64,000 nt of DNA, from contig CAVSMN010000020.1 of NCBI GenBank assembly GCA_963729045.1, positions 64,001 to 128,000 of the forward strand, written 5' to 3'. Source of the stretch: an uncultured Nitrososphaeraceae archaeon (lineage in GTDB: Archaea; Thermoproteota; Nitrososphaeria; Nitrososphaerales; Nitrososphaeraceae). The notes under the pieces are model-generated. The model saw nothing but the letters and a program-made list of their open reading frames with translations, searched no databases and was not told where the DNA came from. Of the stretch, positions 49,534-64,000 are shown in pieces; the stretch's first letter is position 1, and every line of letters starts with the position of its first letter. The translations under genes were made by a program, and so were the position numbers.

Positions 49534-50510
49534 ATGGAATTGAGGAAAGAATTATCCATTAATGAAATAAAATTTATGTCTGGGAAAATTTCTACATCAA
49601 CTCTTGTAAAATTATCTCCGTATCTAGGCAATGGGTTGAACTAAAATTGCAAATGACAAAGTTATTGTTACCACAATATGAATCTAACAACTATGGGAAC
49701 CTTCAAAACTATGCGGAACTTCTTCACTCCGGTCATAAAATTCAAGAAGAGACAACTAATTTAAAAATATGTTATAATTACTTTTCATTAAATTCAAAAC
49801 AGAAAACGGACCCTCATATAGATAATGAGAAGATTACGATAGCTATCAATGATATTCGTAATAACGATAAGAAAATTCTATCATTGCTACGAAAAGAAAT
49901 GTGGTCAACATATTCATTTAAAGCTCTCGAGAGAAAACTTGATATTCATCAACAAAGTCTTTCAAGGGCTTTAAAGAGACTTTTGGACTTGAACCTAATT
50001 GAGAAAACATCATCAGGGTACAAGTTGGTTGAAAGAAATGGGTATAACTTCAATCCAATATTAGAAGATAATCTTTTAAATGAAGAGCCAGAAAAAGATA
50101 AATCAAAAATACATAGAAAATATAATCAATTAATCCAGATCTATATGCATGTAAAGGGTAACATCGAACCCATAGTGGATCATTTAACCGGAAAATGGTT
50201 TGGCAATTTAAGATGGTTCGGCTTGATAAAAAAAGAAACAGGTTTTAGACTTCAATGGATAGTAGTAGATAAACACAGCAACAATAAAATATTTCAGATT
50301 AATGTAAGTATTTTATCAGAATATATTATTGTAGAGTCCAATGCCTTTTCTGAAAGTGAGAAGGTGGAAGCTATGTATTACTCAAATAGGATAATTGAGG
50401 AAATAATAAAAATTCTGCAAGAGAACTTACTTGAAAAAGTTATACCAGAAAAGGAATACACTCCTGTTTACACTAATGACATAAAATTTTCGCATAATAG
50501 GAATAATTGA
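49534..50510 (+). CDS. Winged-helix (MarR/ArsR-like) domain protein; N-terminus probably frameshifted near 49635
   Basis: DKKILSLL...YSFKALERKLDIHQQSLSRALKRLLDLNLIEKTSSGYKL; upstream short frame from ATG 49534 with TATTTAAG about 30 nt before it. Confidence 0.7.
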
Positions 50511-50718
50511 CGAAATATCAAACTCATTCTGTTAGGACTTTCACCTAAACTGGGAATTAAGAATATTGTAACATACAAGATTTCAAATAATCAATCTATT
50601 TTTCCGCGCGTTATGGACTTATAGGATTTGGAATAAAATAGTAAAAAAAAATTGTGCTTTGGAATCATTGCCATATACAATGAATTGTTTGATAGCAGGG
50701 TATCATCATCACATTATG

Positions 50719-51411
50719 TTAGAGTTCCTGTCTTAATTTTGTAAATCCTTGTGACGTAACTATCCCCGACTCAACCACCGGTTTTTCTCCGATTGCTTTT
50801 TCTATAGCTTCATTTGACAATTTCAAAGCCTGTTCAATATTCATATTTGTGTCATAGCCTTTTTGAATCACATCTAGTGCCACATCGGAAGAGTGACCTA
50901 TTGCAAACCCACCTCCTTTCAAATAAGTTCCACTGGGGTCAACTCGGTACAAATGTATTCCATTTTCATCTACTCCAGCAATGATTATTGAAGCCGCTTG
51001 CGGTCTTACAGCATAAATTGTGTAATTGTGTAAATAGGTACTTAGATGTTTTGTGATAGATCTTATGTCGATAGAGCTATCATATGAAATGCGATGTTTC
51101 TGTCCTTGCAACCTTATTTCTTCTATTAAATGTTCTATATCTGCAATATAGCCTGCTCCAGTCGCTCCTATGTGCTTATCAATTACAAATATTTTTTCAT
51201 TAGGATCTACTAAGGGCAAAGTGGGTTTGATATGACTTGAAATGAGGGCGAATTCTGGAGTTTTTAACCCAATAGTTGTTGAACCCTTATTTACCGCCTC
51301 TAGAGCATTATCTACTAACACCAGGCGACCACCTTGTCCATAGTAGTATGGATATCTACTGTTATTCCCAAAACTATAAGGAGAACCTGCAGAATTATTA
51401 TCTTCAGACAT
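50719..51411 (-). CDS. psmA: Proteasome alpha-type subunit, divergent
   Basis: GRL..V..ALEAVNKGSTTIG, EKIFVIDKHIG, G.IAD, VRP, AGVD..G.HLYRVDPSG, AIG. Confidence 0.9.
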   Translation of the reverse strand: MSEDNNSAGSPYSFGNNSRYPYYYGQGGRLVLVDNALEAVNKGSTTIGLKTPEFALISSHIKPTLPLVDPNEKIFVIDKHIGATGAGYIADIEHLIEEIRLQGQKHRISYDSSIDIRSITKHLSTYLHNYTIYAVRPQAASIIIAGVDENGIHLYRVDPSGTYLKGGGFAIGHSSDVALDVIQKGYDTNMNIEQALKLSNEAIEKAIGEKPVVESGIVTSQGFTKLRQEL

Positions 51412-51432
51412 TTTCTGTTATCTTCCTACCCC

Positions 51433-52014
51433 TTATACTACAACCCGTTCGGCTGCTACCAATTTTGGTATGACTAGGACATCTATTCCATTGCCAGAAC
51501 CTGGGTCCCGTTCCATAGCCGCTGCAACAGCTTTTTTAGCAATTTCCTTTGCTTCGTCGTTTGTGATATCAAAATGGTAAAGGCTTTCAAGCACTCCATA
51601 AGCTATGGGGGCTCCCGAACCTGATGCAGCATAATCTTCATTTGTAATCGCACCACTCATATCTGCAACATTTACATGTGATCCGCTGGTATCTACACCT
51701 GCTACTAGTAACTCGACGTAATATGGTTGGTAATTCTTTAGCCCCGAGTAGGCGAGATTTGCGATTAGTCTTGAAGATTCTTTTACACTCAATGGAAATC
51801 CCCTCCTTAGTTCTATCAATTTTCTCTCCGCTGCAGTAACTTTGATTAAATGTTCTGCATCGGATAACTGTCCTGCAATAGCAATTGCAAGAGTATCATC
51901 TATTTTGGAAATCTTTTGTACTATCTTGGATCCTATAAAGAAACCCTTACTGGCTCGTTTATCGGATGCAAGTACCACTCCCTCGGTTGTTTTAATTCCT
52001 ATTATGGTAGTCAT
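51433..52014 (-). CDS. psmB: Proteasome beta-type subunit with intact catalytic residues, apparently without propeptide
   Basis: MTTIIGIKTTEGVVLASDKRAS...QKI: Thr1, Asp17, Lys33; SGSG; RDPGSG; ATG at 52014. Confidence 0.93.
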   Translation of the reverse strand: MTTIIGIKTTEGVVLASDKRASKGFFIGSKIVQKISKIDDTLAIAIAGQLSDAEHLIKVTAAERKLIELRRGFPLSVKESSRLIANLAYSGLKNYQPYYVELLVAGVDTSGSHVNVADMSGAITNEDYAASGSGAPIAYGVLESLYHFDITNDEAKEIAKKAVAAAMERDPGSGNGIDVLVIPKLVAAERVVV

Positions 52015-52402
52015 TTTGTTATAGTAATATAGAGTATGGTCGAATTTATTGACCAAGTTCAGTTCAAATTAGTCACACTTTGACTTTATTTGTTATCAAG
52101 ATTTACTGAAAAGAACTGTAAGATTGAATTTATTGTATATCACACACCAGATACCTAAAAGGGCATCATTAGAGCTTATCAACAAATGTTTTTTCAAGCC
52201 ATTAACCATAATTTAGCAATTTATGCGTCATACCCGCCTATCAAACTAACAAATGTCTCCTGATGATGGACTAAGGAACACAATGTGTTAATATAATTAA
52301 ATAAAATACCAAAATACTGCAACGGGATTAACGAAAACCATTAAATGATAAATATTTCACAACAGGAAAAAAAATTAAGAGCGGATAGGATGGGTAGAAT
52401 AT

Positions 52403-52840
52403 TTAACACATTCTACCGGGTTTGCAATTACTGGGATCAAAGATATGATGTTTTTCGGTCCAGCTCTGATGATGACTGTGATGATCCGCATGATGAGGAT
52501 GAGTATGGGTCACGGTATGGGTATGGCCGTTGTGAGTAAAGAAGTGAGTATGTTCATCTAAATATTGACCATCGTTCTCTGTTGTAGTTTTACCGAGAAT
52601 ATCAGAAAGTTCCCCTATTATTGTAGTCAGTTGAGCGGTTGCGACTGTTGAATTACTACTTGATACAGTATTTTGTGCTTGGGTTAAATTTGCGATCAAT
52701 TCAGCAAGTACCTGGCTATTTTCTTGATTATTAGTTTGAGCAGAAACTTCATTGTTTAATGTCCACCCTCCAAAAGTTATGCCAAATGTTACAAAAAGCG
52801 CAGATATGATTGCTGATTTCAGGAAGATAATGTTCTTCAT
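52403..52840 (-). CDS. Secreted protein with His-rich C-terminal tail
   Basis: Signal ending VSA|Q; DEHTHFFTHNGHTHTVTHTHPHHADHHSHHQSWTEKHH; terminal CKPGRMC. Confidence 0.8.
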   Translation of the reverse strand: MKNIIFLKSAIISALFVTFGITFGGWTLNNEVSAQTNNQENSQVLAELIANLTQAQNTVSSSNSTVATAQLTTIIGELSDILGKTTTENDGQYLDEHTHFFTHNGHTHTVTHTHPHHADHHSHHQSWTEKHHIFDPSNCKPGRMC

Positions 52841-57179: not shown

Positions 57180-58174
57180 TTAGTCTTGACTCAAATAATA
57201 GATCTCATTCTTGGTCGAAACAGTTAATCCAGTATGTGGACCACCTCCTATTGCATATATCTTATCATCATATGAAGCGACACCTAATCCGTGTCGAGCA
57301 GTGGGCATAGGCAATTCTTCACTCCAAGTATCAGTAGCCGGATCATAACGTTCATTATTATTAAACGTTCCTTGATTTTGCTCACCTCCCAATACATAAA
57401 TTGATCCATTTACTGATGTGGCCGCAATACCACTCCTTTTTGACGGCATGGGTTCGAGATCAGTAGTCCATTGATCCAAAACAGGATCATATTTCTCGTT
57501 TACATCTACGTTTACTAAAGAACCAGTAAGTCTACCCCCCATCACATAAATATTTCCATCAACTACTGCAGAAGCAGCATTATGCCGAGCAGTTGGCATA
57601 GGGGCAAGTAAGGTCCATTGTTCAGTTAGTTGGTCGTACCCCTCAACATTACGAGAGAATGATCGTAACTATCCCCTCCAATTACATACAATATTCCATT
57701 AACGAAGTTTGCATTTGGCGAACCTCTGGTGTAGGCATAGGATTACCAAAAGTCCAATTGTTGGTAGCAGGATCATAAATTAACAGGTTGTTACTAGGGA
57801 TCCAATTCCCTGTATATCCCCCAACCAAATAAATCTTACCCCCATAGAGGGCTGCAGAAGCATGGTGAAGAGGTAAAGGTAACGACTTTATGTTTTGAAC
57901 CCAGGTATTATCAGTGGAATTGTACATTTCGACAATGTCTGTAATTTTACCGTCTAAAGTAAAACCACCTATCACATAAACTGCCTCTTCCAAATTAGCC
58001 GCTATTACCTCGGTTCTTGGATTTGGTAAAGCTGCACCCTCCATCCAAATAGATTCTACAGAGGGAGCCGGTGCTGCGAAAGAGGCATTGAATATACAAA
58101 ACCAAAAAAACTGCGACAAAAAAGATCGACAAGATATAAACAGAACGTAGAATAGGTGTAAGAAAAAGTTTCAT
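57180..58174 (-). CDS. Secreted Kelch-repeat protein, about 3 frameshifts (near 58110, 57725, 57650)
   Basis: Repeated YVIGG/YLVGG/YVMGG/YVLGG/YAIGG and YDP...W...PMPT.R; linking frame RGSPNANFVNGILYVIGGDSY; ATG 58174. Confidence 0.85.
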
Positions 58175-62770: not shown

Positions 62771-63721
62771 ATGAATTCTATGTCTTCATCATTATCAGGT
62801 AGTAGTGAAACTGCGACCACAACTCCGATTACGACAAAAATTATCACTATTGCAGACTTAAATAACTTAAAAAAAGACCGAACAATTCTTATTGCTGGAT
62901 TTCCAGGGCCTGGACTAGTCGGTTCAATTAGTACAAGCTATATAATTGACAAATTAGAAATGTATCAGATTGCATTTGTAGAATCCCATTATATATCTCC
63001 CGGAGTAATATTTATTGATGGTAAGTTAAGGCATCCATTTAGGCTATATGCAAACAAAGAAGGAAATGTTTGCGTTTTGGTATGCGAAGCGCCTATAATG
63101 ATGGATGGTATACATTTTGTTCTAGATGCAGTAATGGATTGGGCGATGAAAAATTCAATAGAAGAAGTGATGGTTTTAGATGGAATTCCTGTTCAAGGCA
63201 TACCTGATTCTGATAGAAAAACAGTGATTTTGGCAAGCGAGAATATGGAACAGAATACAAATAAAGAAATTGAAGATACAGATAATGAAGTAAAAAAAGA
63301 CAAGGGAAGTGAAACCGAATATGCCTTGGATGATGGATCTAACCCGCAAAGTAATTTCAATCGAAAAGCGATTGAAGATTCAACTAAGAAGTATACTACA
63401 TTCATAGGAGGTATTGCAGGCGGATTGTTGTCTGCTTGTTTATCTAATCAAATTCCATGCGCTGCAATTCTCATTCCATCTTCGAGCGGAATTCCTGATC
63501 CTGAAGGCGCCTCCCTATTGATTGAATCCTTTAATAATTTCATAAAAGACAATAAACTAAAGATTGAGACAAGTCAATTGAGAGAACAAGGACAAAAATT
63601 GAAGAAACAATTAGAACAAATTATCAAAGCTGAACAGGAACAGCGTGCTGCTGGAGTAGGAGGAGGAGGAGGAGGACCAGAAGATGGGAACGTTCCAAGT
63701 CATCGATTGATGTATGGGTAA
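62771..63721 (+). CDS. PAC2/Pba-family proteasome assembly chaperone with C-terminal HbYX motif
   Basis: LIAGFPGPGLVGSISTSYIID, HPFRLY, IGGIAGGLL, PDPEGA; ends LMYG. Confidence 0.9.
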   Translation: MNSMSSSLSGSSETATTTPITTKIITIADLNNLKKDRTILIAGFPGPGLVGSISTSYIIDKLEMYQIAFVESHYISPGVIFIDGKLRHPFRLYANKEGNVCVLVCEAPIMMDGIHFVLDAVMDWAMKNSIEEVMVLDGIPVQGIPDSDRKTVILASENMEQNTNKEIEDTDNEVKKDKGSETEYALDDGSNPQSNFNRKAIEDSTKKYTTFIGGIAGGLLSACLSNQIPCAAILIPSSSGIPDPEGASLLIESFNNFIKDNKLKIETSQLREQGQKLKKQLEQIIKAEQEQRAAGVGGGGGGPEDGNVPSHRLMYG

Positions 63722-64000
63722 AGATTAAATCTTTTTCATAGAAATACAACATATATTTGAACACCTTGACTAAGCATATCAGAATTATCTTATCTACCCA
63801 CAATTATCAAATTATTCCAGAATGATATGATCCACCAGAGACAAAGAAATAATCTCGAGATGTCGGATGATTAGATATTTGAAATCACAATGGCAAATAA
63901 CAAGATTTCCTTAATTGTTTGATTGTTTGATTGTCTAATAAATATAGATATTAAATATTAGTATTACAACTAGATTCATACTAAGGAAATATTTTCCATT

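Follow-up and report, generated by a model that had tools for sequence, protein, structure and literature searches.

The DNA analysed here, which we call the window, is a stretch of 64,000 nucleotides (nt) from an uncultured Nitrososphaeraceae archaeon of the genus Candidatus (Ca.) Nitrosocosmicus (assembly GCA_963729045.1, contig CAVSMN010000020.1, positions 64,001 to 128,000). Two adjacent genes on its minus strand encode proteasome-like subunits, termed here beta' and alpha', and a 287-codon winged-helix open reading frame (ORF) on the plus strand faces the pair (Table 1). The beta' ORF starts ATG-ACT-ACC, that is Met-Thr-Thr (M-T-T), and encodes 193 aa; its stop lies at 51433 and the alpha' ATG at 51411, which leaves the 21 nt between the genes that the original prediction had given. 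We found that alpha' and beta' are a real, constrained and anciently separate couple with low basal expression beside a full housekeeping set of subunits. On balance we think it probable that they form a second, separately regulated, conditionally expressed and specialised 20S-type core.

Table 1. Features of the beta'/alpha' locus, in window positions
Feature	Position	Strand	Basis
beta', proteasome beta subunit without propeptide (as judged from the sequence)	51433..52014	-	PF00227, catalytic residues, start codon before Thr1
alpha', divergent proteasome alpha subunit, 230 aa, N-terminus ..SRYPYYYGQGGRLVLVDNA..	50719..51411	-	PF00227, predicted structure
Winged-helix protein with C-terminal alpha/beta domain; candidate dedicated regulator	49647..50510	+	MarR_2, HVO_A0261_N, linkage
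Candidate operator GTGAC-N18-GTCAA, promoter region	52049..52076	-	Conservation upstream of beta'
AT-rich box AATAAATT, possible TATA box, about 30-37 nt 5' of ATG	52043..52050	-	Read from sequence
beta'-alpha' spacer, 21 nt, G-rich, GGGGTAGGAAG	51412..51432	-	Read from sequence

Profile searches placed both proteins in the proteasome family, with PF00227 scores in Pfam of 161 bits for beta' (cut-off 22.4) and 136.7 bits for alpha'. On the archaeal beta model arc_protsome_B (TIGR03634) beta' obtained 205.7 bits, below the cut-off of 224; since the two canonical betas of the same genome also remain just under it (218.5 and 217.6 bits), this shortfall is weak evidence against membership. The model 20S_bact_beta gave beta' 71.5 bits, and the HslV models (TIGR03692 and NF003964) only 21 bits against cut-offs of 157.75 and 137, so that beta' is no member of that family. 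For alpha', arc_protsome_A (TIGR03633) returned 147.6 bits, far under the cut-off of 287.35, compared with 290.4 for the canonical alpha of the same genome. The NCBIfam scores thus indicate that the overall sequence of beta' is only mildly unusual, and that alpha' has strongly diverged.

In residue numbers that we take to follow the Thermoplasma convention, alignment with the genome's own betas showed that beta' keeps the equivalents of Thr1, Asp17, Arg19, Lys33, Gly47, the GSG loop and Asp166/Ser169; an equivalent of Ser129 is also present among its catalytic residues. The M-T-T start at ATG 52014 and the intact Thr1/Asp17/Lys33 centre were therefore read correctly in the original prediction. 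T1, D17, R19, K33, G47 and the D/S loop are invariant in all 25 aligned beta' orthologues.

We examined 85 loci, in 77 of which the beta' N-terminus was readable. A start codon stands directly before Thr-Thr in every one of the 77 (72 ATG, 3 TTG and 2 GTG), so orthologues share the start expected from the window. No other in-frame start occurs between the preceding stop and the beta' start in 48 of these loci, and in 15 the stop lies at most 3 codons upstream. PsmB3 of Nitrososphaera viennensis, annotated MKKM-TTIVG.., carries a species-specific three-codon extension. A start codon at position -1 throughout, often with a stop just upstream, indicates that there is no propeptide. Judged from the sequence, beta' thus has no N-terminal propeptide and no Gly-1/Thr1 junction for autolysis. 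Removal of the initiator Met is generally permitted by a small second residue.

It is hardly credible that the true start is instead the in-frame upstream TTG (52054-52056), which would add a 14-residue propeptide and make beta' an ordinary beta: this TTG is conserved in several loci, but only in part of Nitrosocosmicus, and it lies inside the conserved element GTGAC-N18-GTCAA, so that its conservation is explained as DNA; it is absent from a close relative (L014), stops precede the ATG by 0-3 codons in other genera, and residue -1 is always a start codon, TTG and GTG included, and never the Gly found at -1 in the genome's own propeptide-bearing beta. As a weak hint in the same direction, no contig from four soil metatranscriptome runs extends upstream of 52000, and none reaches the TTG. 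The start at TTG 52056, which had been named beforehand as the alternative to a propeptide-less beta', therefore does not hold.

The element that covers the upstream TTG was recognized by comparing the upstream regions of 22 loci anchored on the beta' start codon. Within otherwise unalignable sequence, GTGAC followed by exactly 18 nt and GTCAA, and then by an AT-rich box, was conserved; the copy in the window is 28 nt long. The strict pattern is found at most 120 nt upstream of beta' in 64 of the 77 loci, across three classes, and a slightly looser pattern in 68. Caldarchaeum has the variant GTGAC-N18-GTCGC and Methanosuratincola GTGAC-N18-GTCTA, in both cases in the short gap separating the winged-helix gene from beta'. 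A search of the whole genome with the strict pattern gave three hits (the site in the window, its variant on contig C22 and one other), which is the chance level, spacings of 12-25 giving 1-5 hits each. The element is thus specific to the beta' promoter in this genome and no widespread motif, and no wider regulon was visible in this genome with the strict pattern. Archaeal TATA boxes lie about 26 nt upstream of the start site. The position of the AT-rich box fits this spacing, suggesting that it is possibly the TATA box of a short-leader transcript.

In alpha' several gate residues are changed. We aligned its segment ..NSRYPYYYGQGGRLVLVDNA.. to the genome's own canonical alpha: Tyr8 is replaced by Asn and Asp9 by Ser, so that only Arg10 of the gate motif Tyr8-Asp9-Arg10 is kept, and in the open-gate cluster Pro17 has become Gln and Tyr26 Asn, with Gly19 kept. 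RPFG, present in the canonical alpha, is RPQA in alpha'. The equivalent of Lys66 is kept (EKIF), and this Lys is invariant in 24 of 24 aligned sequences. The available text of PMC3493965 names Pro17 and Gly19 as conserved across archaeal alphas. The original prediction of a lost Asp9, Pro17 and Tyr26, a kept Lys66 equivalent and a changed RPFG is accurate for this protein, but the loss of Pro17 is limited to Nitrosocosmicus, and most alpha' orthologues keep the Pro. At the position of Tyr26 the ammonia oxidisers have Ser or Asn throughout, and Caldarchaeum has Arg. Methanomethylicaceae alpha' retains the gate motif (GYDR and VEYA), which indicates that the loss of gate residues is derived within the alpha' family, on the branch of ammonia oxidisers and Caldarchaeum. 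In these two groups the replacement R-Y/F-P-Y/F-Y-Y-G is itself conserved, which argues for an alternative structure rather than decay.

The predicted structure of alpha' (predicted local distance difference test score, pLDDT, 83.7) has an unstructured segment at residues 1-21 and the N-terminal helix H0 at residues 29-42, before the first strand. Its best structural matches are the alpha chains 1yau_A and 1pma_A, with template modelling (TM) scores of 0.83-0.87; for 1yau_A the TM scores are 0.84/0.87 and the root mean square deviation (rmsd) 2.3 Å. A complex prediction for alpha', beta' and residues 65-287 of the winged-helix protein scored 0.01 against a mark of 0.32, a result that speaks neither for nor against binding.

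We then asked what other subunits the organism has. The assembly searched comprises 2.85 Mb in 22 contigs and is 87% complete. It contains eight PF00227 matches: an alpha on contig C12, betas on C1 and C14, the pair of the window on C20, a near-identical one on C22, and a weak match on C10. The canonical alpha and the two canonical betas are mutually unlinked, and alpha' is about 36% identical to the canonical alpha. The pair is thus additional to a housekeeping proteasome, as had been proposed, and is not the sole alpha/beta couple of the genome. The C1 beta has an 18-residue propeptide that ends Gly|Thr-Thr-Thr. The C14 beta (63178-63777, minus strand) and its counterparts in five other genomes read ..P-G-A-T-A/T-V-G-I, and Ala occupies the Thr1 nucleophile position of this housekeeping beta in ammonia oxidisers, Caldarchaeum and Methanomethylicaceae. 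By its sequence the C14 type is probably a catalytically inactive structural beta; Sulfolobus also has an inactive structural beta. The pair on C22 was considered as a true duplication and rejected, because the whole contig (23.7 kb) is collinear over its full length with C20:102952-126617 at 87-97% nucleotide identity and is therefore a co-binned strain variant.

The match on C10 (130933-131706, plus strand; locus L008:1498-2271) is a third kind of proteasome-fold protein, of 258 aa, which starts M-T-T-V and scores 61 bits on PF00227. It has insertions and a C-terminal extension, keeps the equivalents of Asp17, Lys33 and GSG, and occurs in 11 of 18 other Nitrosocosmicus genomes and in none of 12 genomes of other genera.

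Assays with the activator PAN had been suggested for the pair. A search of the genome with the PAN model matched only the AAA domains of five Cdc48-type proteins, all under the cut-off, and PAN is absent from Thaumarchaeota according to the available text of PMC3493965; with no PAN match in the genome, such assays are not the appropriate test. The C-termini of two of these Cdc48 proteins (..PYYR on C1 and ..IFYG on C11) agree with the HbYX pattern as given in that part of PMC3493965.

The closest relatives of the locus, at 93-99% identity, are from Ca. Nitrosocosmicus, except two labelled Nitrososphaeraceae and one labelled Nitrosopumilus; remoter ones are from Nitrososphaera, Nitrosopolaris and other Nitrososphaeraceae. 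In 65 of 68 loci beta' immediately precedes alpha'; the remaining three are cut inside alpha'. In a class sample of 201 genomes, where an alpha' orthologue was defined by E <1e-85 and an identity of at least 58%, the matches were sharply bimodal: 24 genomes, this one counted, have an orthologue, and every further match was a canonical alpha at about 36-39% identity and E of about 1e-38. The positives are this genome and five of six others of its genus, two further genera of its family, two genera of a neighbouring family (2/2 and 11/12, including the unpublished G132) and both genomes of a third family. Nitrososphaera gargensis, Nitrosotalea-like soil lineages, other Nitrosopumilaceae and Nitrosomirales are among these lineages.

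A search of 61 Thermoproteota genomes with the canonical alpha revealed extra alphas in two other families, those of Ca. Caldarchaeum and of Methanomethylicaceae/Methanosuratincola. Loci of both have a beta that starts M/V/L-T-T and is 58-66% identical to beta', with a relative of alpha' directly after it. When 251 genomes of the phylum were scanned with beta', orthologues were found in 29, this one counted: 17 of 22 genomes of the Methanomethylicaceae family, 9 of 10 of the Caldarchaeum family and 2 of 34 Nitrosopumilaceae, with none in about 40 other families. The presence of alpha' and of beta' agrees in the genomes searched with both queries. In each of five complete genomes from these lineages (two Methanomethylicaceae, Caldarchaeum, Nitrososphaera and a Nitrosotalea-like genus) the operon pair stands beside exactly one canonical alpha and exactly two canonical betas. 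Nitrosopumilaceae without the operon pair (L117, L118 and L126; G004, G012 and G008) have two canonical-type alpha genes instead, 56-64% identical to the canonical alpha of this genome, one with the N-terminus GYDMTPTMYSPDGRIYQVEYA.

In a careful maximum-likelihood tree of 32 subunits, alpha' and beta' formed clades of their own with support of 95/91 and 100/99, respectively, and the branching of Methanomethylicia, Caldarchaeum and ammonia oxidisers was the same in the alpha', beta' and canonical clades and mirrored the species order. In a quick tree of 69 rows the alpha' clade (support 95) fell outside the group of Thermoproteota canonical alphas sampled, its exact position being unsure owing to long branches. 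The simplest reading is an old duplication that was vertically inherited and lost many times. Together with its own promoter element, the three-gene module occurs in three archaeal classes; it is old and predates the ammonia oxidisers.

Identity among beta' sequences ranges from 55 to 89% across the three classes. The ratio of non-synonymous to synonymous substitution rates (dN/dS) between this genome and four relatives (dS 0.21-0.30) was 0.009-0.052 for beta' and 0.063-0.124 for alpha'; a fifth, near-identical pair (dS about 0.02) differed too little to be informative, and distant pairs were saturated (dS >2 or undefined), so that only close pairs were used. Both genes are under strong purifying selection.

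The winged-helix gene had been described as converging on the pair, which it does; it is, however, more than a neighbour and belongs to the unit as a conserved part. A family member is present in the fetched flanks of 34 of the 68 beta'/alpha' loci. It was found in 10 of 10 loci from other ammonia-oxidiser genera, co-directional where it lies upstream and convergent where it lies downstream, and directly upstream and co-directional in 7 of 7 loci from Caldarchaeum and Methanomethylicaceae (E 1e-9 to 1e-16). In the class sample a winged-helix orthologue occurs in 24 of 24 alpha'-positive and in 8 of 177 alpha'-negative genomes, an association only, among kin that are not independent. The protein itself scores 27.4 bits on MarR_2 in Pfam (cut-off 27), and among 20 members of its family 19 match HVO_A0261_N and 17 MarR_2. 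Residues 64-150 of its model match MarR/ArsR regulators with Z of 9-11, and the structural matches include Phr (PDB 2P4W; Z 9.1, rmsd 11.9 Å). The C-terminal domain had no clear fold match in a Foldseek search against the PDB (best E 2e-3, TM about 0.2); among the matches listed in a wide VIA-align search the aligned part is essentially the winged helix, and the ESM Atlas gave no usable match.

The family is also linked to other protease genes. Of eight loci examined in which a member lies away from the proteasome pair, five have it adjacent to and co-directional with a gene for an HtrA-like protease; three of the five come from other families of the class, one is a second copy in N. gargensis and one is from a genus without the pair. 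The element stands just upstream of the winged-helix/HtrA-like two-gene unit of N. gargensis. Furthermore, eight loci of the Nitrososphaera or Nitrosopolaris type have a second strict element about 2 kb upstream of beta', and in all four of these that were inspected it precedes a trypsin-like peptidase with a PDZ domain (HtrA-like). This consistent association with protease genes is better explained by a dedicated regulator of protein quality control than by chance proximity.

Other genes adjoin the unit in some lineages. A gene for a SUI1-type translation factor of 97 aa lies between the HtrA-like and winged-helix genes of a Nitrososphaera locus (L046:2301-2591), with a counterpart in another (L070). 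A gene for a metallo-beta-lactamase-fold protein adjoins the winged-helix/beta'/alpha' unit (L119:3975-4631, L121:5041-6018 and L123:4934-5929), downstream in Caldarchaeum and divergently upstream in both Methanomethylicaceae loci; it was not seen in the ammonia-oxidiser loci examined.

Expression could be followed in N. viennensis, for which the supplement of PMC7785015 holds data on five subunit genes: psmA1, psmB1, psmB2, psmA2 and psmB3. psmA2 and psmB3 are adjacent (NVIE_022230/022240). At 90% identity, PsmB3 (A0A060HIS9) clusters with the beta' of two Nitrososphaera loci, and it is on this that the identification of psmB3 rests. Beside psmB3 lies NVIE_022250, which carries the annotation "conserved protein of unknown function"; from the gene order it would be the winged-helix homologue. 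In the supplementary tables, log2 values of reads per kilobase per million mapped reads (RPKM) are 10.97 for psmA1, 10.69 for psmB1, 10.50 for psmB2, 7.39 for psmA2 and 5.22 for psmB3 (PMC7785015), which puts the psmA2 and psmB3 transcripts about 12- to 44-fold below those of the housekeeping subunits. Under copper limitation the same tables give log2 fold changes of +0.51 for psmA2 and +0.85 for psmB3 (adjusted p 2.8e-8 and 1.5e-6), and psmB1 and psmB2 fall. The proteome tables list 30 peptides for PsmA1, 11 for PsmB1, 18 for PsmB2 and 1 for PsmB3 (PMC7785015). psmA2 and psmB3 are not discussed in the main text of that paper, as far as it was available.

RNA libraries of four soil studies yielded contigs that cover all three genes at 90-99% identity; one contig of 936 nt (run X2, record 9) spans 51065-52000 and bridges the beta'-alpha' junction. 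As assembled contigs, these report presence only, and not strand, level or ends.

Taken together, these observations suggest the following mechanism for the second core. Transcription would start from the beta' promoter, where the GTGAC-N18-GTC element and the presumed TATA region overlap. This candidate site is most likely bound by the winged-helix protein that is inherited with the pair; the protein would keep expression low in unstressed cells and would place the pair in a small regulon for protein quality control, to which HtrA-like proteases also belong in related genera. beta' would be translated as Met-Thr-Thr, and methionine aminopeptidase would remove the Met and expose Thr1 directly, as in HslV, so that, by its sequence and the rule for Met removal, autocatalytic cleavage of a propeptide would not be needed. 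alpha' keeps the fold of alpha subunits with its N-terminal helix, and also the Lys that accepts the C-termini of activators; in ammonia oxidisers and Caldarchaeum a conserved Arg and aromatic cluster, R-Y/F-P-Y/F-Y-Y-G, has taken the place of the Tyr-Asp motif, and Tyr26 is lost. alpha' and beta' would join to build a second core of the 20S type, in which gating would be altered. We infer the separate particle, the changed gating, the binding of the regulator to its operator and the induction by stress from these data.

The most serious competitor, though in our view an unlikely one, is that alpha', beta' or both replace canonical subunits within the housekeeping 20S and so give mixed isoforms. 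Haloferax alpha1/alpha2 and the vertebrate immunoproteasome are analogues. Mixed rings are stoichiometrically plausible, since canonical subunits are far more abundant in the N. viennensis tables at hand; beta' comes near the canonical betas on the archaeal beta model (205.7 versus 218.5 and 217.6 bits), and alpha' keeps the fold and the Lys66 equivalent. The two genes, however, always occur in one operon and are gained and lost together, both belong to long-separated clades, and the identity of only about 36% between alpha' and the canonical alpha would make shared ring interfaces less likely.

An assembly of the proteasome fold other than a 20S-type degrader, for example a smaller or open one or one that serves ligation or specific processing, we regard as improbable. 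Every residue of the proteolytic centre is kept in beta', which scores as an archaeal beta and not as HslV (205.7 versus 21 bits), and alpha' models as a normal alpha subunit. These points stand against a remodelled alpha' N-terminus, a start at M-T-T without propeptide, which is the state in HslV and in Anbu (the latter in the available text of PMC5666114), and the precedent of Connectase, by which proteasome homologues can be ligases (available text of PMC7980362). That the pair is merely a redundant duplicate drifting towards loss, with no distinct role, is very improbable: the patchy distribution, the possible disruptions in G120 and on C22 and the low expression in the N. viennensis data at hand would agree with it, but not the strong purifying selection, the invariance of active-site residues across three classes or the conservation of the promoter element and the partner gene.

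Several observations weigh against a second, separately regulated core. The module is dispensable: no copy was found in the 97%-complete Nitrosocosmicus genome G197, nor in three other genera of Nitrososphaeraceae, nor in 100 of 114 Nitrosopumilaceae genomes sampled, and related genomes are not independent samples. The alpha' gene of the complete, single-contig Nitrosocosmicus genome G120 (C1:1750354-1751895) contains an in-frame TAG, which could be a pseudogene mutation, a sequencing error or a site of read-through, and the C22 copy of beta' carries two 1-nt insertions, explicable by sequencing error or by decay. In 34 of 68 loci, about 12 of them with full flanks, the fetched flanks contain no winged-helix gene; these full-length loci without it nearby are Nitrososphaeraceae, so linkage is frequent and not universal. 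No copy of the element was found upstream of the HtrA orthologue in this genome, and the element also overlaps possible ordinary promoter sequence. Finally, expression is low in N. viennensis, the one cultured relative with data: the response to copper limitation is small, and the proteome rows matched by a word search include no PsmA2 and, for PsmB3, the single peptide (PMC7785015).

A second core that is separately regulated and expressed conditionally still accounts best for these data in our judgement, and a bolder form of it can be offered tentatively, as possible rather than probable. In this form the trio would encode an autonomous, transcriptionally gated stress proteasome that already existed before ammonia oxidisers, Caldarchaeales and Methanomethylicia diverged. 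beta' would be born active, without a propeptide checkpoint; an aromatic R-Y-P-Y-Y-Y plug would close or open the pore in place of the universal Tyr-Asp gate, and the particle might act without ATPases on unfolded or damaged proteins. The winged-helix protein, as repressor or activator, would sense proteotoxic stress via its C-terminal domain and co-control HtrA-type proteases.

Several known systems resemble the module in part. With the canonical archaeal 20S (PsmA/PsmB; Thermoplasma acidophilum 1PMA and 1YAU) it shares the PF00227 fold, Thr1/Asp17/Lys33, the alpha N-terminal helix and the Lys66 equivalent. It differs in a beta' that lacks a propeptide, as read from its start, in an alpha' without Tyr8, Asp9 and Tyr26 (and, in this genus, Pro17) and with RPQA for RPFG, in an operon with beta before alpha that has a winged-helix gene and a promoter element of its own, and in coexisting with a complete canonical set. 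Like the specialised isoforms, such as the vertebrate immunoproteasome and thymoproteasome and Haloferax volcanii alpha1/alpha2, it consists of paralogues beside a housekeeping set under apparently separate control. In those cases single subunits are swapped within one particle, whereas here one unit encodes a complete alpha and beta pair together with a regulator of its own, suggesting an entire second core.

The actinobacterial prcB-prcA operon also has beta before alpha, but its bacterial beta carries a long propeptide, and beta' and alpha' are archaeal by sequence. HslV (bacterial ClpQ) and Anbu likewise start M-T-T, lack a propeptide and have Thr1 exposed by Met removal (for Anbu, available text of PMC5666114); in contrast to them, beta' is of the archaeal type by sequence and has a dedicated alpha partner. 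As a working analogy only, the heat-shock regulator Phr of Pyrococcus and yeast Rpn4 may be compared with the regulator proposed here, in that a winged-helix protein is encoded with protease genes and a common promoter element precedes two kinds of protease gene (beta' and HtrA-like). There is no common sequence family beyond the winged helix, and DNA binding by the protein described here is a prediction.

Two further loci in the window deserve mention. Directly upstream of the operon promoter region, 52403-52840 (minus strand) encodes a predicted secreted protein of 145 aa with a His-rich tail, ..HTHFFTHNGHTHTVTHTHPHHADHHSHH.., which matches no Pfam family and may be a metal-binding protein. 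Two neighbouring short ORFs with Kelch repeats, 57180-57599 (139 aa) and 57682-58119 (145 aa), both on the minus strand, look like a single beta-propeller gene broken by a frameshift or by misassembly.

Public annotation lists these genes as ordinary proteasome subunits (psmA2/psmB3 in N. viennensis). Among open full texts (subscription-only papers and bioRxiv supplements lying outside the scope) we found no description of the missing propeptide, the altered alpha N-terminus, the winged-helix operon, the promoter element or the phyletic distribution. The archaeal proteasome of the textbooks has one alpha and one or two betas, autolysis of a propeptide, a Tyr-Asp-Arg gate and opening driven by HbYX. 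The module is a conserved natural variant that breaks two of these rules at once, having neither a propeptide nor the Tyr-Asp/Tyr26 gate cluster. It bears on whether safe assembly in vivo requires a propeptide at all, on how a pore is gated without the canonical motif and on the control of proteolysis genes in archaea, for which, to our knowledge, few dedicated regulators are known. The organisms concerned are abundant soil nitrifiers, in which the module may mark a stress response absent from marine relatives. If the autonomous stress proteasome outlined above is true, separately regulated, specialised proteasomes would be an archaeal invention older than the immunoproteasomes and thymoproteasomes of eukaryotes.

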